DNA of 64,000 nt from Frondihabitans sucicola (lineage in GTDB: Bacteria > Actinomycetota > Actinomycetes > Actinomycetales > Microbacteriaceae), in contig NZ_AP027732.1 of NCBI RefSeq assembly GCF_030296615.1, positions 2,545,042 through 2,609,041 on the forward strand, given 5' to 3'. Shown one piece after another: positions 2,407-61,932 of this stretch. Every line of letters starts with the position of its first letter. Within the stretch, counting starts at the first letter, position 1. Below the pieces are notes generated by a model. The model was not told the origin of the DNA. It saw only the letters and a list, made by a program, of their open reading frames with translations, and made no database searches. The position numbers and the translations under genes are program-made.

Positions 2407-3139
2407 TCAGATCACGGTCGAGCCTCCGTCGGCAACCAGCTCCATGCCGTTCACGTAGCTGGAGTCGTCCGAGGCGAGGAACAGCGCGACCGAGGCGATC
2501 TCTTCCGGCTGGCCCATCTCGCCCCGGGGGATCACGGCGGAGAACATCTCCTTGAGCTCCGGGGTCATGGCCGCTTCCATCATGGGCGACGAGACCTGGC
2601 CCGGAGTGAGCACGTTCACGCGGATCCTGCGATCCCGGAGCTCGGCCACCCAGACGCGCGCGAAGGCAGGCAGGACGGCTTTGCTCCCGGCGTAGACGCT
2701 CCACTCGGGGTAGCCCCGGAGAGACGCGTTCGACCCGGTCATGATGATCGAGCCGCCGTCGCGCATCAGCGGCAGCGCCTTCTGGACCGTGAACAGCGTG
2801 CCCTTCGCGTTGAGCGTGAACGCCGCGTCGAACGCCTCTTCGGTGATCTCGCCGAGCCTCGCCTGGGGCCTCCTCCTGCGCTCGCCCAGAGGACGTCGAT
2901 CCTGCCTTTCTCGGTCTCGACCGCGTCGAACAGCCGATCGAGGTCAGCGAGGTTCGACGCGTCACCTTGCACGCCGGTGGCGTTGCGGCCGATCAGGCGG
3001 ACCGCCTCATCGAGCGCGTCCTGGCGGCGGCCCTGGATGAAGACGTGGGCTCCTCCTCCACGAAGAGCTTCGCGCCGGCCAGAGCCATGCCGCTCGTCCC
3101 GCCGGTGATCACCGCGACCTTGCCGTCGAGCTTGCCCAT
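2407..3139 (-). CDS. SDR family oxidoreductase with two apparent single-base frameshifts (~2868 and ~3050, both in G/C runs)
   Basis: Three consecutive frames read [30 protein letters not shown] / [55 protein letters not shown] / [65 protein letters not shown]; stop abuts the gene below. Confidence 0.6.
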
Positions 3140-3140
3140 G

Positions 3141-3758
3141 TCAGCGGACCTCGGCCTTGAATGCGACGTCGAAGCCGGCGCCGTTGTTCGCCAGGCCGAC
3201 GAGCAGGATGCCCGCCCACTCGAGCGCGTGGGCCATGCCGAGTCCGCCGGCGTCGCGGGGCTGGAGGTTCAGGCTCTCGAGGAAGGCCGCGAAGCCCGCC
3301 TTGGCCTCGGTGCCGTCTCCGGCGAAGAAGACGTCCAGCGGGGCGTCGCCCGCGATGACACCGCCGAAGATCGTGTTGAAGGCCTTGATCACGTGTGTGT
3401 CCGCAGGGGAGACGGCGGCGATCCGGTGGGCGATCGAGTCGCCCGGCGTGGTCACGATTCCGCTGGCGTCGGCGTTGAACGGGTTGCTGATGTCGACGAG
3501 GGTCTTGCCTGCCAGCGCTTCGCCGAAATGCTGAACGGCCTCGACCGCACCCTGGTACAGGACGGCGACGAAGACGATGTCGCCTGCGGGGTCGGCGCCG
3601 AACGTGCCGACTGTCGCTCCGTGGCCGATCTGGGCGGCGAGATCCTGCGCTGCGGTGGCGTTCCGGCTCAGGATCTCGACGGTGTGGCCGTGCTCGGCAG
3701 CGCGGGTTCCGATGGCGCGGGCCATGTTGCCCGAGCCGATGATGCTGATGGTGGTCAT
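3141..3758 (-). CDS. NADP-dependent F420 reductase-like / NAD(P)-binding oxidoreductase (NpdG family)
   Basis: MTTISIIGSGNMARAIGTRAAEHGHTVEIL Rossmann N-terminus; 205 aa; tightly linked upstream of the SDR. Confidence 0.65.
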   Translation of the reverse strand: MTTISIIGSGNMARAIGTRAAEHGHTVEILSRNATAAQDLAAQIGHGATVGTFGADPAGDIVFVAVLYQGAVEAVQHFGEALAGKTLVDISNPFNADASGIVTTPGDSIAHRIAAVSPADTHVIKAFNTIFGGVIAGDAPLDVFFAGDGTEAKAGFAAFLESLNLQPRDAGGLGMAHALEWAGILLVGLANNGAGFDVAFKAEVR

Positions 3759-3805
3759 AGGAGTGATCCTTCGTGTTCATGACCGGGGAGTCGACTCCTC
3801 AAGGT

Positions 3806-3848
3806 GAGGCACCCCTCCGGTAGTGATCGACAACCGGAGGGGTGCCTC
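3806..3848. promoter_or_regulatory. perfect 15-bp inverted repeat (GAGGCACCCCTCCGG-N13-CCGGAGGGGTGCCTC) in the divergent tetR / F420-reductase promoter region
   Basis: seen directly; lies between divergently transcribed genes starting at 3758 (-) and 3882 (+); candidate TetR operator. Confidence 0.45.
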
Positions 3849-3881
3849 GACTTATTCCCGCCAAGCGAGTAAATTCATGGA

Positions 3882-4634: not shown

Positions 4635-4693
4635 CGGGAATTGCATCTAATGCAGGAACTCCCGCTCAACGACCAGGACAACAAAAAGCCAGG
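4635..4693. repeat. left terminal inverted repeat of the element (contains palindrome TGCATctaATGCA)
   Basis: about 55/59 identity with the reverse complement of 23739-23797. Confidence 0.7.
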
Positions 4694-4768
4694 TCGGTGC
4701 CGTATTCGGCTCCCAGTGAATAACTATCAGGGACGCTTCTCTTGCCGTCAGATCCGCATAGGCGTAGG

Positions 4769-4791
4769 TTTCCTGCATTAGATGCAGGAAA
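4769..4791. promoter_or_regulatory. palindrome TTTCCTGCAT-TAG-ATGCAGGAAA just upstream of the integrase gene; shares the GCATCTAATGCAGGAA core with IR-L (likely recombinase binding site/operator)
   Basis: 10-bp perfect arms seen directly; 7 bp upstream of the int start. Confidence 0.45.
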
Positions 4792-4797
4792 CCACGA

Positions 4798-5937
4798 TTG
4801 GAGAACCGGATGGATGGCGAATTTCCGGGCTTTGTCCCGAAGGTCTTGCTTGATCCTTCTATCGCGTTGTTTCGCGCCGAAGACCGCGTATTCGAGGCGA
4901 TGGTTGATGGTTGGACGTCGGAGATGCTGGCTCGTGGCAATCAGGTGTCAACGATCAAGGATCGCGTGAGCTTGCTCAGGCGGTTCCAGTCGTTTACCAA
5001 TGATTACCCGTGGATGTGGGGTCCAGGCGATATCAACGAGTTCGCGGCCGAGCGACTGTCCGGTGAGCGGCCGATCAAGCCCACAACCCTCCGCACCGAC
5101 TCGAATACGATCGCGATGTTCTGCTCTTATGTGTCTAATCCGGCCTACGGCTGGGTGGCCTTTTGCGAACGGACATTCGACTCAATTCCTTCACAAATCG
5201 TGTTCGAGTGGAACAGCCCGCACCACTCGGCCGACGATGCTGTTCCGACAGGCAAACGAGCTTTTACTAAGCCGGAGCTTCAGCTCATCTTCGACTATGT
5301 TGACGACCTCGCAGACAGTGAATATGCCCGTGGGTCCAAGCGCTGGCCGAACTTGCTCCGTGACTCCAATGCATTCAAGATCTGCTATGCCTACGGCCTT
5401 AGACGTCGGGAACTCACCATGCTCGACACTGTCGATTTCGGACCCAATCCATACGTCCCCGATTACGGCATGTTCGGCGCCCTCACCGTGCGTTGGGCCA
5501 AAGGGGTCAAGGGATCGGGTCCACGACGCCGAACGGTACTGACTGTCCCCGAGTTCGACTGGGTGGTCGAGCTAGCCGACAAGTGGATCAGCTCAGAACG
5601 CCGCGGACGTTTCTCTCACGCCGACGGATCGCTCGCCCTTTGGCCGAGTGAGCGGGGTAACCGCATCTCCCTCGGCACATTAGGCGACGCGTTCACCGCA
5701 GCTCGACGCGCCGTCGGCCTACCCGAAGATCTCGGCCTTCATTGCCTCCGGCACTCCTACGTCACGCACCTGCTGGAGGCGAAATATGACCCGCTGTTCG
5801 TTCAGCAGCAGGTCGGGCACGCCTACGCCTCCACCACGAGTCTCTACACCTCGGTGTCCGACAACTTCAAACAGAGAGCGGTCCAGGAAATGATTGCTGC
5901 ACGCGTTCCAGCCAAGACGGAGACTGCCCATGCCTGA
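4798..5937 (+). CDS. tyrosine-type site-specific recombinase/integrase (catalytically intact)
   Basis: C-terminal box II HCLRHSYVTHLLEAKYDPLFVQQQVGHAYASTTSLYTSV (HxLRH...LGH...Y); TTG at 4798 or ATG at 4810; stop overlaps the next start. Confidence 0.85.
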   Translation: MENRMDGEFPGFVPKVLLDPSIALFRAEDRVFEAMVDGWTSEMLARGNQVSTIKDRVSLLRRFQSFTNDYPWMWGPGDINEFAAERLSGERPIKPTTLRTDSNTIAMFCSYVSNPAYGWVAFCERTFDSIPSQIVFEWNSPHHSADDAVPTGKRAFTKPELQLIFDYVDDLADSEYARGSKRWPNLLRDSNAFKICYAYGLRRRELTMLDTVDFGPNPYVPDYGMFGALTVRWAKGVKGSGPRRRTVLTVPEFDWVVELADKWISSERRGRFSHADGSLALWPSERGNRISLGTLGDAFTAARRAVGLPEDLGLHCLRHSYVTHLLEAKYDPLFVQQQVGHAYASTTSLYTSVSDNFKQRAVQEMIAARVPAKTETAHA

Positions 5938-6283
5938 AATCCGCCGAATCGGCTTCCATTGGAAACTCCGTGCCGTCATGGCCCAGCACAACCTCTGGAA
6001 GTCCACCGACCTCATGCCGCTGCTAAAATCGAGGGGCGTGAACCTCTCCGAAAGTCAGATTTATCGACTCGTCACCGGCTCCCCCGAGCGCATTCCCGCA
6101 CGCACTTTCGCGGTACTCTGCGACATCTTCGACTGCACGCCCAATGACCTCTTCGAACCATTTGTCGAGATGCGGGCCGCCGCGACCGCCAACGCGCCAA
6201 AGGACGTCGAGGATTTGACTTCCACGCCGGGACAGCCGCTAACGCACCGGGTGCGTCTGAGCCGCGTCGAAGACGATGAGTAG
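5930..6283 (+). CDS. XRE-family helix-turn-helix DNA-binding protein
   Basis: ATG overlaps the integrase stop (ATGcctGA); KSTDLMPLLKSRGVNLSESQIYRLVTGSPERIPARTFAVLCDIFDCTPNDLFE = HTH_XRE. Confidence 0.7.
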   Translation: MPEIRRIGFHWKLRAVMAQHNLWKSTDLMPLLKSRGVNLSESQIYRLVTGSPERIPARTFAVLCDIFDCTPNDLFEPFVEMRAAATANAPKDVEDLTSTPGQPLTHRVRLSRVEDDE

Positions 6284-6668
6284 GCCAAAGCAGCCCGAGG
6301 ACCCGGAGCGCTTTCCGCTTGCCTGCGCGCGCTGTCATGAGCATCGGGCCCTGGCAGCTTTTTTCGGGACTGAAGGGAGCGTCTGCGTCAACTGCTACAT
6401 GAAAGCCAAGCGCACCCGTGGGGTCTGCGCCTGTGGGCACGAGGGGGTCCTTCCTGGCATGGTTGGGGGGCAGCCGGCGTGCCGAGCATGCAGCGGTGTA
6501 AAGCTCAACATCGACTGCGTCTCATGCGGAACCGAGGACGAACTCTATTCAGGTGGACGGTGCTGGAACTGCACACTCCGTGAAGCCGTGGATTCCGCCC
6601 TGACGAACCCGTCGACCGGCACAATCTCCCCGCGCTTGTCCCCCTGGCGACGGCACTCAAAGGGATGA
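6276..6668 (+). CDS. cysteine-rich (multi-CxxC, zinc-ribbon-like) protein of unknown function
   Basis: 130 aa with CARCHEH, CVNC, CACGH, CRAC, CVSC, CWNC motifs; overlaps both neighbours by a few nt (operon). Confidence 0.45.
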   Translation: MSRPKQPEDPERFPLACARCHEHRALAAFFGTEGSVCVNCYMKAKRTRGVCACGHEGVLPGMVGGQPACRACSGVKLNIDCVSCGTEDELYSGGRCWNCTLREAVDSALTNPSTGTISPRLSPWRRHSKG

Positions 6669-7747
6669 AGAGGGCAAACAGCGGGCTCACCTGGATTAGA
6701 CAGGATCACGTTCAGGCATTCCTCCGCACCCTCGCCACCTCAGACACGATCACTCAGGAGAGCCTTGATGCCCTCCCAAAAACGAAGACGCGCGAATACG
6801 TCCGCGGCCTCCTTGTCGAGCACGGAATCATCGTCACCCGCGACGACTATCTCGTCCGCTACACCGCGTGGTCCAACGAAGCCGTCGAGCGACTCGTCCA
6901 CGCGCCGGATAAAGCTATCGTGGTCCGCTACGTCCGGTGGCAGCACCTACGGCGCATGCAGCAGATGGACGAGGTGACGATCGGCACATTCCTTCGCTCG
7001 AAGCAGACCGTCACGGTTGCCATCGACTTTCTTAACTGGCTACATCATGAGGGAGTGCTCTTCGCGGACGTCCGTCAAGCGCATCTCGACGAGTGGATTA
7101 ACACTGGACCTTCGACACGAAAGATCGCCAATCGATTCCTTCGTTGGGCTATCAAGACCCGTCTCGTAAAGCCCGACTTGACAATTGCACCGCACCGGCG
7201 TGGCACGGCCGAGCGACTGGATGCTTCGGCTCAAGGAGCCGCCCTTGAACGCGTCGTCCATACCGACGAGCTGGCGCCCCGTGAGCGAATAGCGGCGACG
7301 CTCGTCCTCGTCTTCGGCCAGCAGGTTCGAGACATCGTGACCCTTACCTGGGACCGGGTGCGCATCGAAGACGGTCTCGTCACAATTCGCATGGGCGGGT
7401 TCGACATCGACCTCCCGGCTCCCCTCGACGAGCCATGGCGGCAGCTTGCGGCCCACTCGCCGAACATGCAGACCGCGGCCCACCCGCATAGCTCTTGGGT
7501 CTTCCCCGGGACCAAGCCCGGCTATCACGTCAACCCGAGTCACATGCGGAACCGGCTAAAGCAATACTTCAGCGCACGCGCCGCGCGCCTTGGTACCCTC
7601 CACGAACTCTCCAAACTCGGCCCGATCCCTGTGATCGCCGACGCACTCGGCTATCGGCCGCAAACCATTGAGGCTCACGCAAAAGACTCCGCCTCCGCCT
7701 ACGCCCGCTATGTCGCGTCGATTCGCAGTGAAGACCAGCCAGATTGA
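6665..7747 (+). CDS. tyrosine recombinase-like protein, probably catalytically degenerate
   Basis: N-terminal SAM-like core-binding domain (QAHLDEWI...), catalytic-domain start ...GQQVRDIVTLTWDRVRIEDGLVTIR...DLPAPL, but box II reads HELSKLG...LGYRP...YARY (conserved Arg replaced by Ser, His by Tyr). Confidence 0.55.
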   Translation: MKRANSGLTWIRQDHVQAFLRTLATSDTITQESLDALPKTKTREYVRGLLVEHGIIVTRDDYLVRYTAWSNEAVERLVHAPDKAIVVRYVRWQHLRRMQQMDEVTIGTFLRSKQTVTVAIDFLNWLHHEGVLFADVRQAHLDEWINTGPSTRKIANRFLRWAIKTRLVKPDLTIAPHRRGTAERLDASAQGAALERVVHTDELAPRERIAATLVLVFGQQVRDIVTLTWDRVRIEDGLVTIRMGGFDIDLPAPLDEPWRQLAAHSPNMQTAAHPHSSWVFPGTKPGYHVNPSHMRNRLKQYFSARAARLGTLHELSKLGPIPVIADALGYRPQTIEAHAKDSASAYARYVASIRSEDQPD

Positions 7748-7833
7748 GGGCTTGATTCATGCAGGCTTGTGGATTTCCTCGCGCTGCCTATTTGAATCTC
7801 TCCCTCATCCCGACACCAAGGCTCGGTCGGCTC

Positions 7834-9649
7834 TCAGCTGAGTCCCGCTTCCAGCCGAATACGGGCAAGATCCCTATGCTCGGGTATCCCGGTGATTGAC
7901 CATGGCTCCGGAACGACAAGGTCATTTTTTAGAAGTTCAGAACTATAGATCCGGAACGGGGTTCCATCCATGGGCTCCAGTCTGATATTCATGCCCTTTG
8001 CCGTGCCGCCCAAGAGTCGCCTTCGCACCTCGTCGGCATCCGCGATTTTCATCCTTGGGTGAAAAATGTTTGGTTCGGGTATTAAGACTGGATTGTCCAG
8101 CACGTTGACGCCTGAACCTTCTCCCCGGAAACGCTCCGGTTTAAGATGGCACCTCCCGCGTCCAGCAAGACCATCAGGCCCTCGTCCATTGAGCCGCTGA
8201 GAGTGGCTTTCATCGAAGAATAGTTAGGGATGAGGGCGCATTTTCCTTCCAGCAGCATCCGTGCGATCCGCGTCCAAATACGCTCCGCAGCCTCAGGCAA
8301 CTCCTGCGGAAAAGCGAAGGTCACATCGCCCAACTTCTCGATCACAGACAAGTCCTCGGCATACTCGCTCAATTTTGGGTCAGCCGCTCTTAGGTCTGCC
8401 CCCTGTGGGAGCGCCGCGCTGACCGACTTTCCACTCAGGGTGAGCCGGAGTCGTTGAGCCCGAGGAAGGGTGTCCATAAAGCGAACTACCCGGTTGACGG
8501 CCACGCCGGACCGTCCCACAGCATCAAAGGTCATGTCTGTGGAACCAGAAAGGCTGTCTCGTGGGAAGCGCCAGAACATTGAAAGGACTTCTTCGAAGGA
8601 CACCTCGATAAAGCCGCCTTCCGTGCCGTTCCCCACATCGGTGCTCGTGCCAGTAAGCCCGCCAAGGTGCGTGCCGTCAGCGGCGTATGAGTCGATGCGG
8701 GCTGGTTCACCTTGGTGAGCGTCACGAACGGGGATTACCGAGACTGCATAGCCGCTCTCCGTCCCCGAAAACCAGTCGGCCGGCCCGTCATAGACCAGTG
8801 AATGGACGTTCTGCTCCGGCAAGTCGAGACGCGTGCCCCGTCCGTAGCCGAACACATCTTTCGTCAGTTTTGCCAGTTCCGCATCCTCACGGCCGAACAA
8901 CATGTTGACCGTGATCGACAGCGGTTCCATGTCCGCTGCGTCTTCCCTCTTCGCGTACAATTCCCACCCTGGCAATCCGTCGACGACAGCCAGTCGGCGA
9001 CCCCAGTACAGGCTGAAAGTGTTCTGGTCGGCAATGTACCGAGCTAGCCCGTCGTGGGCCTCTTGAAGAGTTCTAGGTGCTGCATCCTTATGGCCAATCC
9101 TTGAAAGGGCCAAGTCCACCGCGCTGCGCACGCTCCAGTCTTGGACGTCGGGATGTTTGGCGAGGAGTCTGTCCAGCTCAACGGAGCCAAGAATGTGAGT
9201 TCGAATCGAGGTGCCATCGCTCAGCTTCGAAACCCACTTTTGTTCGGCGTCCGTAAACTCTTCTGGCACCACCAAGGTCCAGTCCGGCATGCCCAGGGCT
9301 GTCGCTGTCGTGAACGACTTCTTGATTTGCTTGCGTCGACTGTCACGCCAGCCCCCGAAAAGCCTTCAGGGAAATGCTTCAGTTGAAACACATGGACGAC
9401 TGAACCAGATGTCTTGTCCCGAAAGACGATGTCGATGCCGCCGTCACCGCCGCGGCCGCTGGGTGCCGAAGCGGCGTATCCGAGGGCGTCACCGTCACGA
9501 GTGATAAGCACGTTCACGATTCGCTCGAAGTCCTCGCGGGAAATTGTCCGCCACTGAACTTTTTCGACCACGGACTCTCCCCCATTGCAGCACTGCGTCA
9601 ATCGTATCGGCGCCAACGCACTGACCAGGGACGAGACGAAATGCCTCAC
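7834..9649 (-). CDS. Mrr-like PD-(D/E)xK restriction-endonuclease N-terminal domain fused to a ~450-aa domain of unknown function; two apparent single-base frameshifts (~9354 in a G6/C6 run, ~8106)
   Basis: N-terminus ...SREDFERIVNVLITRDGDALGYAASAPSGRGGDGGIDIVFRDKTSGSVVHVFQLKHF (D-GGIDIV...QLK = Mrr catalytic motif); three successive frames join into one ~600-aa protein if one base is restored at each junction; lower GC than surroundings. Confidence 0.5.
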
Positions 9650-9832
9650 CCTGACGAGGAGGCAGACGCGTCTCCGCGAGATGGAGAACGCTGTTCCGTA
9701 CGTCGCACTGGCGCGATCGCAGCACGTCGCTCAGTTGTCGTTGGCATTTCGTCGCAGCCGGCGATTTGACTCCGCCGCTGTCACCCAAGCGGCGATCCTT
9801 CAAAGCGCATTCTTAGGCGAGGGGCGTCGTTC

Positions 9833-10351
9833 CTAGTTGGTTCCGGTGACGGTGCTGCGGCGTTCGAGGAAGACGTTGTCTCGCCACTGTCCTGCCCACG
9901 GGCCGAAGCTCATCCGCCCAATGCGTTCCCGGATGCCGACCTCTCGGAATCCGTGGGCGGCATGAAGGGCGAGGCTTCCGCGGTTCTCGGGGAAGACCGC
10001 GGATTGAATCATCCAGACTCCCGCTGCTTCGGATGTGGTGATGAATTCCGCCAGGAGCAGGTGGCCAACCCCGGCACCGCGGGCGTTCTTGGAGACATAG
10101 ATGGAGTGCTCGATGACCCCCTGATACACCGGCCGCGACGACACGCTCGACGCGGCCGCCCACCCGACGACGTTGTCCTGCGTGTCCACGGCGACGAGTC
10201 GGAGTCCTCGAATTTTTCCGCCATCGAACTCCTCCCAGGACGGAGGCTTGTCCTGGAAGGTCGCGTTACCCGACGCGATGCCCTCGGCGTAAATCCGTTC
10301 GACGGCAGGCCAGTCGCCCGCCTTCATCGCACGGATCGTCACCTCGGTCAT
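9833..10351 (-). CDS. GNAT family N-acetyltransferase (phosphinothricin acetyltransferase-like)
   Basis: MTEVTIRAMKAGDWPAVERIYAEGIASGNATFQ...RGAGVGHLLL; ATG 10349-10351. Confidence 0.8.
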   Translation of the reverse strand: MTEVTIRAMKAGDWPAVERIYAEGIASGNATFQDKPPSWEEFDGGKIRGLRLVAVDTQDNVVGWAAASSVSSRPVYQGVIEHSIYVSKNARGAGVGHLLLAEFITTSEAAGVWMIQSAVFPENRGSLALHAAHGFREVGIRERIGRMSFGPWAGQWRDNVFLERRSTVTGTN

Positions 10352-10697
10352 GCCGGGTTGAGGGTCCGACTGCTGGCGGTGAGGGCGGCGAAGTCGGCAC
10401 GGTAGTACGCCCATTTGCCGCGCTGTTCGCGGATGGCAAGGCCGGCGTCGACGAGCTGCTTCATGTGATGCGACACCGTGGGCTGCGACAGCCCGACCGG
10501 TGCCGTGAGGTCACAGATGCAGGCTTCCCCGTAGGGCTTGCCGCGATGAGTGACAGGAGCCGCACTCGGGTGGGATCGCCGAGCGCCTTGAACACCTTGG
10601 CGACGTCTTCCGCTGCGGACGCCGTGAGGGCGTCCTCACTGGTCGGGGCGCAGCACGCCGCGTCGGTGGGCGCGAGAAGCGAGGCACTGGTGGTCAT
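10348..10697 (-). CDS. arsR: ArsR/SmtB family metalloregulator (apparent single-base frameshift ~10543)
   Basis: MTTSASLLAPTDAACCAPTSEDALTASAAEDVAKVFKALGDPTRVRLLSLIAA then +1 frame GKPYGEACICDLTAPVGLSQPTVSHHMKQLVDAGLAIREQRGKWAYYRAD; stop overlaps the GNAT start (ATGA). Confidence 0.7.
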
Positions 10698-10721
10698 GGC
10701 CTCATTCTGCCAGTCGCATTG

Positions 10722-10760
10722 ACATCTGTCGATGTATCGAGCACAGTCGATGTATTGATT
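10722..10760. promoter_or_regulatory. repeated 12-13 bp near-palindromes (GTCGATGTATCGA / GTCGATGTATTGA) in the divergent arsR / arsO promoter region; candidate ArsR operator
   Basis: seen directly between starts at 10697 (-) and 10785 (+). Confidence 0.4.
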
Positions 10761-10784
10761 GTTGTCGATCCGAGGAGTTTTCCC

Positions 10785-12101
10785 GTGTCTGATCTTCCCG
10801 TTGTCGTCATCGGCGCCGGCCCGCAGGGCCTTGCCGCTGCCGCCCACCTTCTCGAACGTGGCCTTGACCCCCTGGTACTCGAAGCTGGCGACGGCCCGGC
10901 GGCCGCTGTGAATGAGTGGGGCCACGTCCGGCTGTTTTCGGACTGGTCAGAACTCGTCGACACCACGGCCGGCCGGCTGCTTGAAGGAACCGGATGGACG
11001 GCTCCGGCGAAGGGCTACCCGACCGGAGCGCAGTGGATCAGCCGCTACCTCTCGCCTCTCGCTGAGGCGTTGGGTGACCGGGTGCGGTACGGCACCACCG
11101 TGACTGGTATCGGTCGGCAGGGCCGTGACCGGCTGGTGGATGCGGGCCGAAGCGAGCAGCCCTTCACCGTTCACGTCAACGCCGGCGGGACCGAGGAACG
11201 CATCACCGCTCGTGCTGTCATCGACGCGTCGGGAACCTGGTCGACCCCGAACCCGCTGGGCGCCGACGGTCTCCCCGCCCTCGGCGAGAAGGCAGCGGCC
11301 GCGTTCATCTCCGATCGCATCCCTGACTTCCACGACCATGACCGGTTCGCCGGCAAACACACGGTCGTCGTGGGCAGTGGGCACTCCGCGGCGACCGCGA
11401 TCAACGAACTCACCCGCGTCGCCAAACAGCACCCCGATACCCGCATCACATGGGTCCTTCGTCGAGGTGGCGTTGGGAACACATTCGGTGGCGGCACGGC
11501 CGACGAGCTGCCCGAGCGCGGAGCCCTCGGCGCTCGTGCGCAGAAGTCCGTCGAGGCGGGGATCGTGGATCTCGTCACCGGGTTCCGCGTCGAACGAATC
11601 AACACCACCGACACCGGCGCCGTCCTCATCTCCGAAGACGGACGCGCCCTGCCCGAGGCAGACCTCGTCGTCGCCCTGACCGGGTTCCGACCCGACCTGT
11701 CGTTCCTGTCGGAGGTGCGCCTCGAGCTGGATGCCACGTTGCAGGCACCCATCCGAATCGCGGCGGAGGTCGACCCCAACGTACATAGCTGCGGGTCCGT
11801 CCGAGCCACCGGAGCTGCGGACCTGGCACAACCGGAACAGGATTTCTACCTCGTCGGCGCGAAGTCCTACGGCCGCGCGCCCACGTTCCTGGCGATGACC
11901 GGATACGAGCAGATCCGCAGCGTCGTCGCGGAACTGGCCGGCGACCACGAGGCCGCCGCCCGCATCGACCTCATCCTCCCTGACACCGGCGTGTGTGGCG
12001 GGGCAGGGTTGTTCGACGACCCCACCGGCGCCAGAGGCGGCGCCTGCTGCGCCCCTGCATCGACACTTCTGCAGATCGGCCGTGCCCCCGTCACCGCTTG
12101 A
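10785..12101 (+). CDS. FAD/NAD(P)-binding oxidoreductase (ArsO-like flavin monooxygenase family found in actinobacterial ars clusters)
   Basis: GTG start 8 nt after a GAGGAG RBS; VVVIGAGPQGLAAAAHLLERG dinucleotide-binding motif, second GxGxxA (VVVGSGHSAATAI). Confidence 0.65.
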   Translation: MSDLPVVVIGAGPQGLAAAAHLLERGLDPLVLEAGDGPAAAVNEWGHVRLFSDWSELVDTTAGRLLEGTGWTAPAKGYPTGAQWISRYLSPLAEALGDRVRYGTTVTGIGRQGRDRLVDAGRSEQPFTVHVNAGGTEERITARAVIDASGTWSTPNPLGADGLPALGEKAAAAFISDRIPDFHDHDRFAGKHTVVVGSGHSAATAINELTRVAKQHPDTRITWVLRRGGVGNTFGGGTADELPERGALGARAQKSVEAGIVDLVTGFRVERINTTDTGAVLISEDGRALPEADLVVALTGFRPDLSFLSEVRLELDATLQAPIRIAAEVDPNVHSCGSVRATGAADLAQPEQDFYLVGAKSYGRAPTFLAMTGYEQIRSVVAELAGDHEAAARIDLILPDTGVCGGAGLFDDPTGARGGACCAPASTLLQIGRAPVTA

Positions 12102-12116
12102 GCGAACCAGTCGCCG

Positions 12117-12791
12117 CTAGGCGGGGGCGAGACGGGGCGCAAGTTCCTGGATGCGGTGTTCGAGGTCCGTGAAAGCGGCCTCGAATGCCGCATCCGTGCC
12201 CAGACGGACAGGGTCGGGGATCGACCAGTGCAGCCCGGACGGGACGGAGAGTTCCTCATGGGCGTTGTCGCAGACCGTGACCACGAAGTCATCCGGCGCG
12301 AGAACGTCAGAGAGCATTTGCGGGGTGGCCTCTTGCAGGTTCAGGTGGTGCCGCTTCGCTGCCCGGATAGCGCCCGGTTCGACGCGCTCGGCGGGGTGAG
12401 TTCCCCCGGATGCGGCAGGGATACTGCTGGCGCTGGCCCACAGCGCTGCGGCGAGCTGTGACCGGGCGGAGTTCCCGGTGCAAACGAACACAACCCGGTG
12501 GCCGGCGACCGAGGATGTCGGAGTCAGCCCCGACAAGGAACCTGGGGCGAGGTGGAGATAGCTGCGCCTGCGGTCGCCCTCTGACCGGACCCGAACCAGA
12601 ATGCCCACGCCTTCCAGCACCTTCAGGTGATGCGCCACGAGGTTCGAGGGCATGCCGAGCTGCTGGCTCATGTCGGTCGGGGAGACATCCCCAAGGGTTA
12701 ACAGGTCGACGATCCGTAGGCGTGCCGGATCGGCCAGGGCGGCATGTTTCGCAGCCCGCGCCTCGATCATCTCTGTTAGCTCAGCGTTCAT
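12117..12791 (-). CDS. arsC: ArsR HTH fused to LMW-PTP-type arsenate reductase (ArsR-ArsC fusion)
   Basis: N-terminus RLRIVDLLTLGDVSPTDMSQQLGMPSNLVAHHLKVLEGVGIL (ArsR HTH); C-terminus VVFVCTGNSARSQLAAALW (CX5R P-loop of LMW phosphatase/ArsC). Confidence 0.8.
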   Translation of the reverse strand: MNAELTEMIEARAAKHAALADPARLRIVDLLTLGDVSPTDMSQQLGMPSNLVAHHLKVLEGVGILVRVRSEGDRRRSYLHLAPGSLSGLTPTSSVAGHRVVFVCTGNSARSQLAAALWASASSIPAASGGTHPAERVEPGAIRAAKRHHLNLQEATPQMLSDVLAPDDFVVTVCDNAHEELSVPSGLHWSIPDPVRLGTDAAFEAAFTDLEHRIQELAPRLAPA

Positions 12792-12831
12792 TACCTCAAT
12801 CTTGACTGAGGTACCGTCTTGGCGTCAAGAT

Positions 12832-13587
12832 GTGCAAGTGCCCTTCTTGACCCCGATCCCACGCACCGATCTCCTGCGCCGCCTGCTGGCGGAGCTGCTC
12901 GGGACGGCTCTTCTGGTGACGGTCGTTGTCGGTTCGGGGATCATGGCCCAGCAGCTCAGCCCGCGCGACGTCGGGCTGCAACTGCTGGAGAACAGCCTCG
13001 CTACCGCTTTCGGCCTGACGGTTCTGATCCTGATGCTCGGTCCGATCTCGGGGGCGCACTTCAACCCGGTGGTCACGCTGGCGGACTGGGCTCTTGGCCG
13101 TCGCACCCGCACCGGGCTCCGTTCAGCGATGGTCCTTCCCTACGTTGTCGCGCAGGTCGTTGGGGCGATCCTCGGAGCAGTCCTGGCGAACACCATGTTC
13201 GACACCCGCACGACCATCGCAACCACGCACCGCGCCACTGGCGGGCATCTCCTCGGGGAGATCGTCGCCACGGCAGGGCTGATCCTGGTGATCTTTGCCC
13301 TCGCACGCACCGGCCGCGGGGCCCTGGCTGCTCCTGCGGTCGGGGCGTACATCGGGGCGGCGTATTGGTTCACCAGCTCGACTTCGTTCGCGAACCCTGC
13401 CGTGACCATCGGCCGGATCTTCACCGACACCTTCGCCGGCATCGCCCCCACCTCCGCCCCCGCCTTCATCGGCGTCCAGCTGGTGGGAGCCGCGGTCGGC
13501 TGTGCCCTGCTTCTCGTTCTCTATCCCGACGTCGCCCGGTCCGCCGACGACGTCGTCATCCCGCACCTCGACCAGGCGTCCGCCTGA
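12832..13587 (+). CDS. aquaporin/aquaglyceroporin (MIP family) arsenite channel
   Basis: two NPA boxes (SGAHFNPVVT and SFANPAVT); six TM helices; GTG start after the divergent arsRC start. Confidence 0.8.
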   Translation: MQVPFLTPIPRTDLLRRLLAELLGTALLVTVVVGSGIMAQQLSPRDVGLQLLENSLATAFGLTVLILMLGPISGAHFNPVVTLADWALGRRTRTGLRSAMVLPYVVAQVVGAILGAVLANTMFDTRTTIATTHRATGGHLLGEIVATAGLILVIFALARTGRGALAAPAVGAYIGAAYWFTSSTSFANPAVTIGRIFTDTFAGIAPTSAPAFIGVQLVGAAVGCALLLVLYPDVARSADDVVIPHLDQASA

Positions 13588-13608
13588 CCCGCCCCGAAAG
13601 GCCCTCTC

Positions 13609-14991: not shown

Positions 14992-15380
14992 CCGACAAGC
15001 CCACCGTCTTGTTCATCTGCCAGCACAACGCCGGCCGCTCCCAACTCGGCGCAGCCCTCCTCGAACACCTCGCCGGAAACGACTACACGGTCACCTCAGC
15101 GGGGATCGCGCCCGACAAGACAGTGAACCCGGCCGTCGCGGCGAGTATCGCGGAGCTGGGGATGGACATCAGCCAGCGGGAACCGCGGGCCGTCACCGTC
15201 ACCGACCTCCAAGAGGCCGACGTCGTCGTCCTCATGAAGCCTGGCCTAGTCTTGCCGAGCACGCCCGCGGGACGGGTGTTGGAGTGGTCCTTCCCGAATC
15301 CGGAGAACTGGGACGTGGACTCCGTCCGGCCCTTGAGGGAAGCGGTCGCGGCGCGCATCACCTCCGACCTGTTCGCCTGA
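14988..15380 (+). CDS. arsC: arsenate reductase, LMW protein-tyrosine-phosphatase family
   Basis: MTDKPTVLFICQHNAGRSQLGAALLE (CX5R); ATGA overlap with the upstream gene. Confidence 0.8.
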   Translation: MTDKPTVLFICQHNAGRSQLGAALLEHLAGNDYTVTSAGIAPDKTVNPAVAASIAELGMDISQREPRAVTVTDLQEADVVVLMKPGLVLPSTPAGRVLEWSFPNPENWDVDSVRPLREAVAARITSDLFA

Positions 15381-15400
15381 CGCTATGACCTGGAGGGGAG

Positions 15401-17400: not shown

Positions 17401-17533
17401 GCCGACTCCTCATCTGATCACTTGTTCAGATGACCGTAACAGGCCGACGAGCCCTAGTCACGCAGCCGCCCCTTGCAGGTCAGTCTGAATTCATGTCACA
17501 ATGGTCCTGCGCTTTTAGCGCGTGAAAAACAGC

Positions 17534-19974: not shown

Positions 19975-19975
19975 C

Positions 19976-50031: not shown

Positions 50032-50117
50032 TGTCCGGGTGGCGGAAATGGCAGACGCGCTAGCTTGAGGTGCTAGTGCCCTAACGGGCGTGGGGGTTCA
50101 AGTCCCCTTCGGACACA
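50032..50117 (+). tRNA. tRNA-Leu (anticodon GAG), type II with long variable arm
   Basis: anticodon stem CTAGC/GCTAG with loop TTGAGGT; T-arm GGGGG-TTCAAGT-CCCCT; variable-arm hairpin GCCC-TAAC-GGGC; acceptor pairing TGTCCGG/TCGGACA slightly unusual (exact ends +/-2 nt). Confidence 0.7.
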
Positions 50118-51812: not shown

Positions 51813-53137
51813 ATGACAACACGAATCGTTATTCTGGGTGGTGGTTCGGCGGGTCTCCACACCGCGCTCGCTCTGCAGAAGAAACGCCCGCCGCAGAGCG
51901 CGAGCATCACGGTGATCGACCCGAGCCCATACATGACCTATCAGCCCTTCCTCCCGGAGGTGGTCGGAGGTCACATCGACCCGAAAGACGTCACCGTCCC
52001 GCTCCGCAAGACGCTGCGCCGGTCGAAGTTCATCCAGGGAGCGATGACGGGCATCGACACGAACGCGAAGAAGGTCAGCGTCGCCCATGTCGACGGCAAG
52101 ACCTCGGAGGTCGCCTACGACCACCTCGTCGTAGCGCTCGGTGCCGTCACCCGCACCTTCCCCACCCCGGCCTCGCCGAGAACGCGGTCGGATTCAAGAG
52201 CGTCGAAGAAGCCACGTACGTGCGCAACCGGGTCCTCGGCAACATCGAGAAGGCCGCGTCGACCAGCGATCCGGCCGAGCGGGCCAAGCTCCTCACGATC
52301 CTGTTCGTCGGTGGCGGCTACACCGGCGTCGAGGCCCTCGGCGAACTGAACGACGCCGCCAATGCGGCCGTCGACCAGTATCCGGTCCTGTCCCGTCACG
52401 AGCTCCGTTTCGTCCTCGTCGAGGCGCTCGACCGTGTCGCGCCCGAGGTCGGCCCGGAGCTGTCCAAATGGACCCTCGGCGCCCTGCGCGCACGCGGAAT
52501 CGACATCCGTCTGAAGACGACGATGCCGTCCTGTGAGAACGGCGACTGCGTCCTCAGCGACGGCGAGACCATCCCGGCCGGCACCATCGTCTGGACCGCC
52601 GGCGTCAAGCCGAACCCCGCGCTCGACGCGACCGACCTCCCGCGCGGGCCGAAGGGTCACGTGAACGCCAACGCCAAGCTCGAGGTCGTGACCGACGCCG
52701 GCAAGCGCGTCGACGGCGTGTGGGCCCTCGGCGACAACGCCCAGGTCCCCGACCTCACCGCGGCCAAGCAGCCTGCCTACTACCCGCCGAACGCCCAGAA
52801 CGCCGTGCGCCAGGCCGTGACGGTCGCCGACAACATCCTGGCCTCCATGGCGGGCGAGCCCCTGGCGGAGTACCGCCACGAGTCGGTCGGCACCGTCGCC
52901 AGCTACGGCATCGGCAAGGGCGCCGCCCTGATCCAGGGGATCCACCTGAAGAACCTGCTCGCCTGGCTGGCACACCGCGGCTACCACCTGCTCGCGATGC
53001 CGACCTACACGCGCAAGTGGCGCATCCTGACCGGATGGGTCACCAACTTCGTGTCCGGCCGCGACGAGACCACCCTCGAGAACATGAGCGACCCGCGCGC
53101 CTCGTTCGTGGCCCTCGCCGGAGGCGTCAAGAAGTAG
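51813..53137 (+). CDS. ndh: type II NADH:quinone oxidoreductase (apparent single-base frameshift ~52168 in a CCCC run)
   Basis: MTTRIVILGGGSAGLHTALAL... ; second frame ILFVGGGYTGVEALGEL...WALGDNA. Confidence 0.8.
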
Positions 53138-53949: not shown

Positions 53950-55508
53950 ATGACCGGCCTGAGTCGCGACGTCGGTGAGAACCGGCGCGTCGCCTGGCCG
54001 CAGTCAGCGCGCCCGACGGCCGCGGGATGGACGGACCTCGGCGAACGGGTGGGCGGTGCCGAAACGGGCGCCGGCTGGGCCATTCGCTACCGTCGTCGCC
54101 TCCTCGCCTCCGACGCGGCCATCATCGCCGTCTCCGTGGTCGTGGCAGCCTTCGTGGAGGCCGTCCGCGACGGTCTCGACAAGACCGCCGCCGGCATCGC
54201 GGGGGCTCACCCGCAGCCGCTCCTCGAGACCCTCGGCTACCCGATCGGCATCGGGCTCCTCTGGGCCCTCTGCCTGGCATTCCAGCGCACGAGAGACCTG
54301 TCCGTCGTGGGTACCGGTGCCGCCGAGTACAAGCGCGTCCTCAACGCCACCATCCTCACGTTCACGCTCATCGCGCTGATCATCTCGATCACCGGGCACG
54401 AGAGCATGCGCGCCTACTTCTTCGTCGCGCTCCCCGGCGGTGCCCTGGGCCTCATCGGCTCCCGCTACGCGCTCCGGCGCTGGCTGCTCCGTCAGCGCCG
54501 CCTGGGCAACTTCCTGTCGCGCGCCATCGTCGTCGGCTCTCGCGCCGACGTCCGCTACGTCATCGACCGCATCGACGAGAAGCCCGGCGCCCTCTACGAC
54601 GTCGTCGGTGCCGTGGTGGACGACGACGACCCGTCCGGCATCTCGATCGGCGCTCGCCTGGTCCCCATCGTGGCCGGTCTCGACGACGTCTCCCGCGCCG
54701 TCTGGAAGATGAACGTCGAGAGCGTCATCGTCGCCGGTGACCCCCGGCACGGCACCGACTACGTCCGCGACCTGGGTTGGAGCCTCGAGGGCCGGGCCAC
54801 CGAACTCGTGATCGCCTCCCGACTGGCGAACATCGCCGGACCCCGCATCCACTTCCGTCCCGTGGAGGGCCTGCCGCTCATGCACGTCGAGCTGCCGCAG
54901 TTCGACGGGCCCAAGCACGTCATGAAGCGCGCCACCGACGTCGCCCTGTCGGGTCTCGGGATCCTGCTGCTGCTGCCCCTGATGGCGGTCATCGCCCTGA
55001 TCATCCGCTCGGAGGGCGACGGCCCCGTGCTGTTCCGTCAGGAGCGTGTGGGCCGCGACGGCCAGCGCTTCACGATGCTGAAGTTCCGCACGATGGTCGT
55101 CGACGCCGAAGCGCGACTCGCCGAGCTCGAGGCGCACTCCGAGGGGGCCGGCCTCCTTTTCAAGATGAAGCAGGATCCCCGCGTCACCCGCATCGGTCGT
55201 GTGCTGCGGAAGTACTCGCTCGACGAGATCCCCCAGCTGTTCAACATCTTCGGCGGGACGATGAGCATCGTCGGGCCGCGCCCGCCGCTCCCCGCGAGGT
55301 CGACGGCTACGCCGACCACGTCCACCGCCGCCTGTACATCAAGCCGGGGCTGACCGGCATGTGGCAGGTGAACGGGCGCAGCGATCTCAGCTGGGAGGAG
55401 AGCGTCCGGCTCGACCTCTACTACGTCGAGAACTGGTCGATGACCGTCGACTTCGTCCTCATGTGGCGGACGGTCAAAGTGATTCTGCGGCCGGAGGGGG
55501 CCTACTGA
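53950..55508 (+). CDS. polyprenyl glycosylphosphotransferase (exopolysaccharide/cell-wall sugar transferase, WcaJ/CpsE-like); apparent single-base frameshift ~55292
   Basis: N-terminal TM helices; C-terminal bacterial sugar transferase domain ...DGPVLFRQERVGRDGQRFTMLKFRTM...EIPQLFNIFGGTMSIVGPRP then +1 frame LPREVDGYADHVHRRLYIKPGLTGMWQVNGRS. Confidence 0.75.
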
Positions 55509-58613: not shown

Positions 58614-59080
58614 CCACCGAACGCCGTGTCGGCTACGCAGCCGGCGCCTACGACCTCTTCCACATCGGTCACCTGAACCTGCTTCGCCACGCGAAGTCGC
58701 AGTGCGACTACCTCATCGCGGGAGTCGTGGCCGATGAGATGCTCGAACTCAACAAGAAGATCTCTCCGATGGTGCCGCTCGCGGAGCGTCTCGAGATCGT
58801 GTCCCACATCGACTTCGTCGACCGCGCGTACGCGGAGACCGTGCCCGACAAGATGGACGTGTGGCGCGAACTCCGGTTCGACGTCTTCTTCAAGGGCGAC
58901 GACTGGCGCGGCACCGAGAAGGGCCTCCGACTCGAGCGCGAGTTCGCCGAGGTCGGGGTCGAGGTCGTCTACTTCCCCTACACGATGTCGACCTCGAGTA
59001 CCGTTCTGCGGCGTGCCGTGGCTGCGCTCGACGCGTACGACAGCGACGCGGCCCGCCTCTCCTCCACAGGCGGCGAATAA
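58610..59080 (+). CDS. tagD: glycerol-3-phosphate cytidylyltransferase (TagD-like)
   Basis: VGYAAGAYDLFHIGHLNLLRHAK (HxGH cytidylyltransferase motif); ATGA overlap. Confidence 0.8.
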   Translation: MTTERRVGYAAGAYDLFHIGHLNLLRHAKSQCDYLIAGVVADEMLELNKKISPMVPLAERLEIVSHIDFVDRAYAETVPDKMDVWRELRFDVFFKGDDWRGTEKGLRLEREFAEVGVEVVYFPYTMSTSSTVLRRAVAALDAYDSDAARLSSTGGE

Positions 59081-59148
59081 GAGCGCAGGATCACGCGGAC
59101 TGTGGAGAGCATCGGCGCGCCCCGGCGTCCTGCCGCACGATCGTCGCA

Positions 59149-59670
59149 TGACTCTTGTAACCGATCGTGAATCCGCCCAGCCGACCCCCGACGCCTCGGC
59201 GTCCTGCGTCCAGAGCTCTCTGCTGTCTCCTGCGAGCCTCGGGCTCGCCGACGACTCCGTCCCCGCCTACGACCCGCACACCCGGCTGACGGCCCGCGCC
59301 GACCTCGACCGCCGCATCGTGGGCCTGCTCCCCCGCGCCATCGTCCGGCAGCTCTGGCTGCTCCTGTTCGACGCCGACGACATCCAGATGCCCGCCATGA
59401 TCCCCATCGGCGATCTCCCCTGCGGCACGGCGAGGCCGACGGCGAGGGGCTCTCCGAGCTCCTCGGCGCCCTCGACCGCGAATTCGGCGTCGCGAGCTAC
59501 GTCTTCGTCCTCGAGCGCCCGGGCCCAGCCGACCCGACCTCCGACGACCTCCACTGGCTCACCCATCTTCTGGGCGTCGCCGATGGGCGGCCGTTCAGCG
59601 TCCGCGCCGTCTACCTGTGCCACGACTCGGGGGTCTCGGCCTTCGAGCGGGCGGAGGCGCCCGCGGGGTG
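59149..59670 (+). CDS. hypothetical protein (apparent single-base frameshift ~59418 in a CCCC run)
   Basis: two frames join to ...MIPIGDLP/LRHGEADGEGLSELLGALDREFGVASYVFVLERP... Confidence 0.4.
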
Positions 59671-60073
59671 AAGGGCGGGGGTGCCGTGTGAGCTCGTGGT
59701 CAGGTGGAGGATGCGCGCGGTGCGGAGTGCCCGACGATCAGGCGTCGGGGGTGGTGTCGCGGTGGCGCCACCAGGCGGTCTCCGCGTGGTGGGCTGAGGT
59801 GTACACCCCGAGGTTCCGCCGTTCCGACTCGATCAGCGACCAGCTGGTCAGCTTGAAGCCGCGCGCGAAGGCCTCGACGAGCGCCTCGGGAGGTGAGTCG
59901 TCGCTGGCGCGCACCAGCCAGGTCAGAGGTCCGGTCTCGTCGAGCATCCTGCCACTGTAAGACCCCGGCGGGCGCTCCCGGTGCCGGCGTCTTGCGGCGG
60001 CGTCTCGCGGCGGCGTCTTGCGGCGTCCTACGGCGGGCTCTTGGGGCGGAGGACGGCCTGCGACCCGACGTGC

Positions 60074-61932
60074 TTACTTGCGGTTGCCGATGCGACCGCG
60101 AAGGACGTCGATTCGCTTCTGGATCTGCTCGGTGCTGGCCTGCGCGACGGAGGGGCCGCCGCTGATGCGACGGAGGTCGGCGTGGATGAGGCCGTGCGGC
60201 TCGTTGGAGTGACGCGACCAGATGGAGACCAGGCGGCTCAGCTCCTGCCGCTGCTCCTTGATGGTCTGATAGAGCGGGCGCGGTGTCTCGGCCTGTGTCG
60301 GGAGTCCGGTCTTGGGCGCGCGTTTGGCGCGGCCCGCCTGGGTGGCCTGGCGCTGGCGAAGCAGGTCGCGCACCTGGTCGGGTTCGAGGAGCCCCGGAAT
60401 GCCGATGAAATCGAGTTCTTCGAGGCTACCGATCTCACCGCCGGTGCCGAACTCGCCGCCGTCGTAGAGCACGCGGTCGAAGGAGGCCTGGGCGTCGAGA
60501 GCCTCGAAGGGCTGCTGTTCGAGGAGGCTGGAGGCCTTCTCCTCGCGGTTGGCCTCGGCGACCATCGCGTCTTCTTCCGGGGTGAAGAGGCCGTCGTCGG
60601 CGTTGGTCGGACGGTCGAGGGCGTGGTCGCGCTCGAGTTCGAGCTGGCCGGCGAGGGCCATGAGGCCGGGAACGCTCGGCAAGAAGATCGATGCGGTCTC
60701 GCCGCGCCGACGCGCTCGGACGAAACGGCCGACGGCCTGCGCGAAGAACAGGGGCGTGGAGGCACTGGTGGCGTAGACGCCCACAGCGAGACGCGGGACG
60801 TCGACACCCTCCGACACCATGCGCACGGCGACCATCCAGCGGGACTCGCCCGCCGAGAACGCGGCGATCCGGTCGCTGGCCGCCTTCTCGTCGGAGAGCA
60901 CGACGGTCGGGCGTTCGCCGGTGAGCTTCATCAGGATGGCTGCGTAGGCGCGGGCAGCCGTGTGGTCGGTTGCGATGACGAGGCCACCGGCGTCGGAAAC
61001 GCCGCGACGAACCTCGGTGAGCCGCTTGTCGGCGGCCGAGAGGACGGCCGCGATCCAGTCGCCCTGCGGAGAGAGCGCGGTGCGCCAGGCCTGGGCCGTG
61101 ATGTCTTTCGTGACGGCCTCGCCGAGCGTGGCGCTCATCTCGTCGCCCATGCGCGTTCGCCAGCGCATCTGGCCGGCGTAGGCCATGAACAGGACGGGCC
61201 GGACGACGCCGTCGGCGAGAGCGCGACCGTATCCGTAGGAGTAATCGGACTGCGACGTGCGGATGCCGTGCTCGTCGGGTGCGTATTCGACGAACGGGAT
61301 CGGAGCGGTGTCGGATCGGAACGGGGTTCCCGTCAGAGAGAGCCGACGCGTCGCACGGCCGAAGGCCTCGCGGATGCCGTCGCCCCACGTCAGAGCGTCG
61401 CCGCCGTGGTGGACCTCGTCGAGGATGACCAGTGTGCGCCCGGCTTCGGTGAGTGCCTTGTGCACCTCAGGCTTCATACCGACCTGGGCGTACGTGATCG
61501 CGACACCGTGATAGTGCCGACCGAATGTGACGTCGCCGTTCTTGAACATCGGATCGAGCCGCAGGTTCACGCGGTCGGCGGCGTCGGCCCACTGGCGCTT
61601 GAGGTGCTCTGTAGGGGCCACCACGACGACGCGGTCGATCTCGCCTCGGGAGAGCAGCTCGGTCGCCAGGCGGAGCGCGAAGGTGGTCTTGCCCGCGCCC
61701 GGGGTCGCAGCCGCCAGGAAATCGCGAGGGGAGGTGGCGAAGTACTTCTCGAGGGCTTCCGCCTGCCAGGCGCGGAGCTTGCCGGCGGTGCCCCAGGCAG
61801 CCCGCTCGGGGAAGGCGGGTGACAGGTGCTCTGCGGCCGAGTTGCCCGCGATCGCGCCGATTTCGAGTTCGGTTTCTGAGGCCGGAGAAGGGTTCTCGGG
61901 CTCGGGAGGAAGGAAGCGTTGGCGATACTCAC
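60074..61932 (-). CDS. superfamily-2 DEAD/DEAH-box helicase (apparent single-base frameshift ~61903)
   Basis: GTG start 13 nt after the dinB stop; ATPGAGKTTFA Walker A, DEVHH, helicase C domain. Confidence 0.7.

Follow-up and report, generated by a model that had tools for sequence, protein, structure and literature searches.

Frame-breaking deletions in a 64-kb stretch of the Frondihabitans sucicola genome assembly and their probable origin in consensus under-calling

Interrupted reading frames in bacterial genome sequences can have several origins. Leifsonia xyli subsp. xyli and Mycobacterium leprae have pseudogene-rich, decaying actinobacterial genomes. The 7C tract of glpK in M. tuberculosis undergoes reversible homopolymer frameshifting, and endosymbionts that have long poly(A) tracts are known to rescue frameshifts by slippage. 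Flow-based sequencing platforms such as 454 and Ion Torrent produce over-calls as well as under-calls, and they leave dinucleotide repeats and 2-base runs at full length. Approximately half of nanopore errors fall in homopolymers and short repeats, where they are mainly deletions, and the lengths of homopolymers and dinucleotide repeats are under-estimated (PMC8486125). Runs of C or G are read worse than runs of A or T, and high-GC bacteria lose accuracy above a run length of 4 (PMC8486125). Uncorrected nanopore R9.4.1 assemblies and low-coverage bins keep homopolymer indels, which fragment gene calls (PMC9262707). Here we examine 64,000 nucleotides of the Frondihabitans sucicola assembly GCF_030296615.1 (contig NZ_AP027732.1, positions 2,545,042 to 2,609,041; hereafter 'the window'), in which 19 protein genes and tRNA-Leu(GAG) carry 23 frame-breaking lesions.

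Re-scoring against relatives' proteins indicates that all 23 lesions are missing sequence, with 21 one-base and two two-base deletions. In comparison with every relative, the deposited sequence is short of these bases. It is very probable that they represent an artefact of consensus under-calling and not gene loss, and in the organism itself the genes and tRNA-Leu are most likely unbroken. The consensus would have under-called homopolymers and short tandem repeats, leaving one base (twice, two) missing per approximately 2.8 kb. Bases would have been lost when reads were called or the consensus was built, and not in the cell; the most likely source is a nanopore-type (or other raw long-read) assembly that was unpolished or of low coverage, a platform that we infer. 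The initial annotation of this DNA had judged pseudogenization on such a scale implausible and had proposed an assembly artefact. What favors an artefact over decay is the occurrence of deletions only, the lack of nonsense codons and of systematic sequence drift, the load of lesions and a run-length spectrum depleted in longer runs. The location of lesions in homopolymers does not discriminate on its own, since natural slippage favors homopolymers too.

Broken frames and intact relatives

The window has a G+C content of 67% overall, with two stretches near 60%. Its nearest species-representative genome is Frondihabitans sp. PhB188 (locus L001), with 81% amino-acid identity on a GT2 glycosyltransferase. 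An intact M20 peptidase used as a protein query gives Frondihabitans matches at 88-96% identity. Further syntenic relatives are Logan contig ERR8084708_112 (L081 and L084), F. peucedani (L082) and Logan SRR26836122_663 (L085), and the closest metagenomic proteins are 93-94% identical to those of the window. Coding frames were segmented by a Viterbi procedure based on G+C content at third codon positions (GC3), and same-strand frame switches were read off. Stop-to-stop open reading frames (ORFs) on either side of each switch were scanned with Pfam profiles. Lesions were typed by adding one or two unknown bases, or removing one, at every junction position and re-scoring the translation against the relative's protein; at some sites, frames were read by eye in addition. 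Where a gene had no close relative, family motifs, Pfam scans of the repaired protein, plasmid homologues or conserved N-terminal peptides served to resolve the lesion. Called genes of relatives were used as queries in place of two sets that were dropped. When every stop-to-stop ORF of the relatives was run through raw tblastn, shadow-frame matches typical of high-GC DNA dominated, and a GC3-filtered ORF set missed most junctions. Gap lists from whole-region blastn (approximately 80% identity) were too noisy for frameshifts and were consulted at individual sites only.

Frame switches in the segmentation fall at nearly all coordinates given by the initial annotation, and GC3 stays coding-like in the shifted frame past the breaks. 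When mapped to the window, relatives' proteins for these genes break into two or three collinear segments that lie in different frames; every neighboring gene is matched as a single segment. The Pfam halves abut on one profile for PAC2, Pyr_redox_2, Bac_transf, adh_short_C2 and GATase_4. All genes that allow comparison are unbroken wherever a relative has them, across four Frondihabitans relatives and several plasmids. The 13 coordinates listed initially prove correct to approximately 5 nt, and each of the 15 genes named there is confirmed as broken. Beyond these, a tyrosine recombinase gene (6628-6631), a second arsR-family gene and tRNA-Leu(GAG) (50104-50107) are broken as well. Two repairs each are needed in the SDR, class-II glutamine amidotransferase (GATase), SPFH and lnt genes.

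Models that add bases are best at every site, usually by hundreds of score units, and the number of insertions is zero. The expectation of single-base deletions with 2 bp in one case proved close: one-base losses prevail, but there are two 2-bp events. Both represent the loss of one unit from a dinucleotide repeat (GATase, 24726-24732; second arsR-family gene, 17202-17212). Lesions occur at a density of one per 2.8 kb and affect approximately 30% of the genes overall and 16 of approximately 40 in the conserved part. Both a mobile element and the core genome are affected, which is what an artefact of the whole assembly would produce.

The same deletions might instead be real, and reflect very recent massive gene decay in a host-restricted or mutator lineage, with C-tract slippage inactivating approximately one-third of the genes. 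Homopolymer slippage is a natural route of mutation, and pseudogene-rich Microbacteriaceae such as L. xyli subsp. xyli exist. The strand asymmetry described below could also, in principle, reflect slippage biased by replication strand. Genuine pseudogenes are expected to display mixed lesion types (nonsense codons, insertions) and relaxed constraint downstream of breaks, in genomes where indispensable RNA genes are spared. This is not the pattern of the window. There are no in-frame stops in approximately 45 kb of conserved genes, where the four that were flagged are natural termini or lie in the out-of-frame middle of the GATase gene. Alignments to relatives reveal no large deletions and no insertion sequence (IS) elements within the broken genes, which are also free of base insertions.

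Sequence conservation on the two sides of the breaks is likewise difficult to reconcile with decay. Identities upstream and downstream are 88% and 88% for helY, 90% and 97% for the PAC2 gene, 96% and 93% for ndh, 87% and 93% for the sugar transferase gene, 90% and 92% for the response regulator gene, and 89% and 94% for the SPFH gene. Identity past the break is usually as high as before it and as in intact neighbors, with no systematic fall, and in most genes it is higher. The exception is pafB, in which 93-96% identity upstream contrasts with 83% (L082) or 58% (L081) downstream; among six genes compared, it stands out for its lower downstream identity. Overall, these alignments suggest no clear relaxation of constraint downstream of the breaks. 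The affected genes include lnt, ndh, mshC, pafB, the response regulator gene, helY and tRNA-Leu(GAG), which decodes a major leucine codon. Furthermore, the observed load extrapolates to approximately 1,200-1,500 frameshifts per genome, all of which would have to be too recent for any second lesion. Decay of this kind has a low probability, and the simultaneous, very recent inactivation of this many genes is very unlikely.

Run lengths, repeats and strand

C/G runs of 4-5 bases (true length 5-6) are touched by 16 of the 23 events, and A/T runs by none. By chance, a random interval of 3-9 nt touches a C/G run of at least 4 with a probability of 0.05-0.09. Before the recombinase lesion was added, 15 of 22 events lay in such runs (binomial p = 9e-11). 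The initial annotation had assigned almost all cases to runs of at least four; the enrichment is real, but the proportion is lower, at 16 of 23 events and 10 of its own 13 coordinates. At seven sites, a relative's run exceeds that of the window by exactly one base, and its flanks are identical or nearly so: GATase (24978), NUDIX (29707), SPFH (31423), PAC2 (45242), tRNA (50104), sugar transferase (55290) and a conserved hypothetical gene, hyp192 (59417). Comparison with close relatives, which had been proposed as a check, finds these longer runs together with intact genes.

The run-length spectrum of the window is shifted downward. Only two C/G runs of at least 6 are seen when approximately 12 are expected (Poisson P = 5e-4, from small numbers), or 0.03 per kb compared to 0.18-0.23 per kb both in relatives and across 1.3 Mb of further Microbacteriaceae loci. 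Runs of 5 number 77 versus approximately 105 expected (1.20 versus 1.6-1.7 per kb). In homologous blocks, C4 runs are more frequent in the window and C5 runs less so. This shift, the predominance of deletions, their concentration in C/G runs and the shortening of tandem repeats are all features of under-calling.

Two types of platform had been suggested at the outset, either a flow-based 454 or Ion Torrent type or unpolished long reads. Flow-based miscalls gather in homopolymers, and such data often show deletions in C/G runs. However, two of the events are losses of dinucleotide units and five lie in runs of 2-3 bases, neither of which is produced by flow-space miscalling. No over-calls are seen among the 23 events, and one event per 2.8 kb at a true run length of 5 is high for an assembled 454 consensus. 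A flow-based platform is the less likely of the two suggestions and, taken by itself, an unlikely source; long-read consensus error fits better.

It has also been considered that the lesions are real but silent, with phase-variable C-tracts or with rescue by transcriptional or translational slippage. There is precedent in the reversible homopolymer frameshifts of actinobacteria and in the slippage rescue of endosymbionts. However, tracts of 4-5 bases are too short for efficient slippage, and the targets are housekeeping genes hit at arbitrary positions rather than the 5' ends of contingency genes. Neither mechanism would rescue a tRNA stem or the two dinucleotide repeats that are also affected. 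Silent lesions of this type are extremely improbable.

Several observations weigh against consensus under-calling. Slippage in homopolymers is the commonest natural indel mechanism. The stage at which bases were lost is deduced from the sequence. Seven of the 23 events fall outside runs of at least 4, and those in 2-3-base runs are found in the response regulator gene (26788), helY (37066), the SDR gene (3050), mshC (47679) and a helicase gene (61901). At GATase 24726, a one-base insertion fits almost as well by the protein scores: adding two bases gives 1078, removing one gives 1067 and the unrepaired frame gives 573, with a single 2-nt deletion and an adjacent double 1-nt deletion tied at 1078.

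A further discrepancy concerns strand. Read on the + strand, 14 C-runs but only two G-runs are affected, even though 233 C-runs and 222 G-runs are available (two-sided binomial p of approximately 0.004 by our own arithmetic, for the 16 events in runs of at least 4). The sequence CTCCCC is affected at 8 of 21 sites and GGGGAG at 0 of 13. The eight deletions in CTCCCC are located on the + strand at 6628, 24978, 29707, 31423, 32246, 45242, 55290 and 59417. A symmetric error of a double-strand consensus does not predict such an asymmetry, and strand-symmetric errors are what under-calling would ordinarily yield. Skewed coverage by a few long reads may explain the bias, and also the high residual error rate, or it may have arisen by chance. 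Alternatively, the short C-tracts might be real, and a Frondihabitans lineage might have experienced a burst of strand-biased contractions, preferentially at CTCCCCC on one strand, caused by a replication or repair defect or a sequence-specific lesion. Hundreds of frameshifts, including that in tRNA-Leu(GAG), would then have to be tolerated or bypassed, and we regard this scenario as highly improbable.

Individual lesions along the window

At the left side of the window, an SDR gene (2407-3139) lacks one base at 2865-2868 (- strand), where a G4 run on the + strand has a true length of 5. The adh_short_C2 profile is split into 15-87 and 86-236 over two frames. A second base is missing near the N-terminus at 3047-3059 (- strand), where there are short runs only (GGG/CC). 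A peptide ending in FVEE is read in one frame there and its continuation in the next, and the family motifs of this gene are read in three frames. The repaired protein matches adh_short_C2 from 6 to 236 in one stretch (183.8 bits), and adh_short positions 1-190 are restored.

The mobile element spans 4635-23798 (19.2 kb, approximately 60% GC) between 63-nt inverted repeats (4635-4697 and 23736-23798) that are 90% complementary. It is absent from relatives, and in L084 a Big-domain gene sits between the GATase and TetR genes. At one end, two tyrosine recombinase genes flank a small helix-turn-helix (HTH) gene. The cargo consists of a Mrr-like gene, a GNAT gene, two arsR genes, an ars cluster, two CDF transporter genes and a resolvase gene. 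A perfect 17-nt inverted repeat, TGCATCTAATGCAGGAA, occupies 4642-4658 and 4770-4786. One arm falls in the element's left terminal repeat; approximately 110 nt away, the other lies shortly before the first recombinase gene. The arsenic-resistance cluster is 76% identical to Rathayibacter plasmids; it alone was matched when the island was compared to plasmids by megablast, and at 76% identity it is too distant for base-level comparison. In the second of the two tandem CDF genes (15404-16264), a transmembrane domain was found and a C-terminal dimerization domain was not detected, which could reflect a further frameshift or a natural truncation.

Four genes of the element are broken. The gene at 6276-7747, which encodes a tyrosine recombinase with a Cys-rich N-terminal domain, lacks one base at 6626-6634 (+ strand), within a C4 run at 6628-6631 (context TCTCCCCG). 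Once repaired, the protein (490 amino acids) can be aligned without a break to plasmid ORFs from 190 records. Its score against the continuous 494-amino-acid ORF of pASPHE302 rises from 433 to 1528, with the best position at 6629-6631. On pASPHE302, a Pseudarthrobacter plasmid (L086, 2252-3985), and other plasmids, the homologues are annotated as 'Fis family transcriptional regulator' and start at a downstream codon. Their conserved Cys-rich N-terminal domain (approximately 115 amino acids) is left unannotated even though it lies in the same open frame.

The Mrr-like gene (8082-9586) lacks one base at 9347-9356 (- strand), in a C5 run at 9352-9356. The Mrr_cat match ends at position 57 of 115 in the upstream frame and reaches 97 of 115 after repair. 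Homologues of this gene form one continuous ORF, and one added base raises the score against Curtobacterium pC1b from 200 to 917. In the first arsR/smtB gene (10402-10697), the deletion is at 10521-10532 (- strand; C4 run at 10527-10530). Residues 1-58 and 57-99 of a Rathayibacter plasmid ArsR align in two frames, and the score is 306 with one added base compared to 136 without. The second arsR-family gene (16998-17358) has instead lost 2 nt at 17202-17212 (- strand), equivalent to one (CA)n/(TG)n unit. GEMCV is read in one frame and CVCDLAAT... in another. No Pfam family is found in the unrepaired gene, and repair yields HTH_5 positions 1-46/47 with 47.7 bits.

The GATase gene (24346-25116) is broken twice on the - strand. 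At 24726-24732, 2 nt are missing where a TC/GA repeat unit has been lost, and the DNA alignment reads GCCG--TCAGG in the window and GCCGTCTCAGG in L084. At 24976-24981, one base is missing from a C4 run (24978-24981) for which L084 has CTCCCCC. MCRLFG...FQPG is read in one frame and VPLVDKD... in the next, and the GATase_4 profile is split into 68-114 and 123-255. The LuxR-type response regulator gene (26426-27090) lacks one base at 26788-26790 (+ strand), where the run is only CC. Its Response_reg and GerE domains are in different frames, and repair increases the score from 554 to 987 against L084 and from 465 to 861 against L001.

A luciferase-like monooxygenase gene (28344-29403) is located between the GT2 and NUDIX genes, a position that it does not have in L001 or L084. 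The NUDIX gene (29402-29850) lacks one base at 29704-29710 (- strand), in a C4 run (29707-29710) that is C5 in L001 with conserved flanks. The profile match begins at position 39, in the downstream frame, and the score rises from 195 to 655. As for Band_7 in the SPFH gene, the first 20-40 profile positions are missing from the unrepaired match.

The SPFH/Band-7 gene (31266-32270) lacks one base at 31421-31426 (+ strand; C4 run at 31423-31426), and repair raises its score from 243 to 1518. L001 and L084 have CTCTCCCCCGG where the window has CTCTCCCCGG, and the bases adjoining the run are identical. A second, probable one-base deletion lies in the C-terminal tail at 32242-32250 (+ strand; C4 run at 32246-32249). 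Here the L084 alignment ends at residue 333 of 339, and the unrepaired frame reads on for 116 codons into the GDPD gene. The repaired protein ends in ...TPPAAPAAQ, and its stop falls shortly before the start of GDPD. Repair adds little to the score (1513 to 1523), so of all events this one is the weakest; a different natural stop was considered as an alternative.

The L084 protein aligns in three frames to lnt (33633-35289), which carries two one-base deletions on the - strand. The deletion at 33925-33931 (G4 run at 33928-33931) cuts the CN_hydrolase match at 201 of 256, and its repair raises the score from 2137 to 2337. Repair of the other, near the C-terminus at 33786-33793 (C5 run at 33787-33791), raises it further to 2534 with L084, and from 1792 to 1907 with L001. 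In helY (35289-37837), one base is missing from the linker after the DEAD domain at 37064-37069 (- strand), where the run is only GG. DEAD is in a different frame from Helicase_C and DSHCT, and residues 22-290 and 294-863 of the L001 HelY align in two frames, each with 88% identity. Repair increases the score from 1180 to 3852, and a stop codon in the upstream frame limits where the site can lie.

The pafB gene (40049-41040) lacks one base at 40406-40413 (- strand; C5 run at 40407-40411). WYL and WCX are in different frames, as are the matches to residues 1-211 and 211-331 of the L082 protein, and repair lifts the score from 999 to 1509. In the PAC2 gene (44944-45860), the deletion is at 45240-45248 (+ strand; C4 run at 45242-45245, with ACTCCCCCGCC in L081). 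The profile is split into 1-64 and 65-215, and the score increases from 477 to 1494.

Two genes are interrupted ten codons after their starts, both by one-base deletions in 3-base runs on the - strand. In mshC (46458-47711; deletion at 47676-47682), MRSWTAPAIP is read in one frame and LPGTSPVPILFDT in the next, where relatives have MRSWATPKLPTLPGTGAVPILHDT, and the main frame is left without a start codon. In the DEAD/ResIII helicase gene (60077-61932; deletion at 61899-61905), VSIANASFLP is in one frame and EPENPSP...AGNSAAEHL in the next, and relatives start with (M/V)S(I/T)A.... The main frame of this gene offers no start codon short of a 170-nt overlap with dinB. A mere difference in start site was rejected for both genes because the relatives' conserved N-terminal peptides are present in the neighboring frame.

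The only RNA gene in the catalogue is tRNA-Leu(GAG) (50032-50116), which lacks one base in the 3' strand of its T-stem at 50103-50107 (+ strand). The run at 50104-50107 is CCCC in the window, CCCCC in L081 and L085, and CCCCCC in L082. Otherwise, one variable-loop base differs from L081, and the gene matches L085 over the aligned stretch. The Rfam tRNA model registers the deletion and two non-standard pairs, scoring 37.0 bits compared to 46.1 for L081, and the threshold is still passed.

The remaining lesions are one-base deletions in C4 runs on the + strand. In ndh (51813-53134; deletion at 52163-52168, run at 52165-52168), Pyr_redox_2 is split into 2-119 and 115-291, a conserved Thr codon is without its third base, and repair takes the score from 588 to 2149. 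In the sugar transferase gene (53950-55505; deletion at 55287-55293, run at 55290-55293), Bac_transf is split into 1-115 and 110-178. Seven relatives give the same two-frame split, and L081 has GCTCCCCCGCG at the site. In hyp192 (59193-59668; deletion at 59414-59422, run at 59417-59420), residues 27-109 and 109-192 of the L082 protein align in two frames, as does the L085 protein. Repair increases the score from 241 to 525, and L081 has ATCTCCCCC.

Consequences and comparison with known systems

The kind of artefact proposed here is ordinary and well known, and it involves no biological novelty. Nothing about the organism should be inferred from the broken genes, which we would not regard as pseudogenes. 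As the initial annotation anticipated, automated annotation would split or truncate approximately 30% of the genes in the window, and no pseudogene call made there is reliable. The number of pseudogenes will be overstated, completeness scores and ortholog calls will come out too low, and tRNA-Leu will be scored as defective. Fragments of broken proteins will enter databases, and polishing or frameshift-aware annotation is required before the record is used in comparisons. The 23 mapped sites provide a ready test set, and the strand and context pattern at CTCCCC may help to diagnose the assembly route.

Four known systems offer points of comparison. As in the decaying genomes of L. xyli subsp. 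xyli, a member of the same family, and M. leprae, many conserved genes are interrupted. However, decaying genomes accumulate mixed lesions (stops, indels of both signs, deletions and IS elements) together with sequence drift, whereas the window has one class of lesion, no systematic drift and a broken tRNA-Leu(GAG). With the phase-variable glpK tract of M. tuberculosis, the window shares C/G-tract frameshifts in an actinobacterium. Phase variation involves one or a few loci with tracts of at least 7, while the tracts here are 2-5 bases long and are spread over 20 unrelated genes. Data from 454 and Ion Torrent share with the window indels that are largely confined to homopolymers. They differ in having errors of both signs, whereas all 23 events here are contractions, including two dinucleotide units. 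Unpolished assemblies from nanopore (R9-type) or other raw long reads differ in their standard description from the window with its asymmetry between C and G strands and its recurrent CTCCCC context. They resemble it in having deletions only, in C/G runs of approximately 5 bases and at a few per 10 kb, in high GC content and dinucleotide losses, and in the splitting of otherwise well-conserved genes into two frames.

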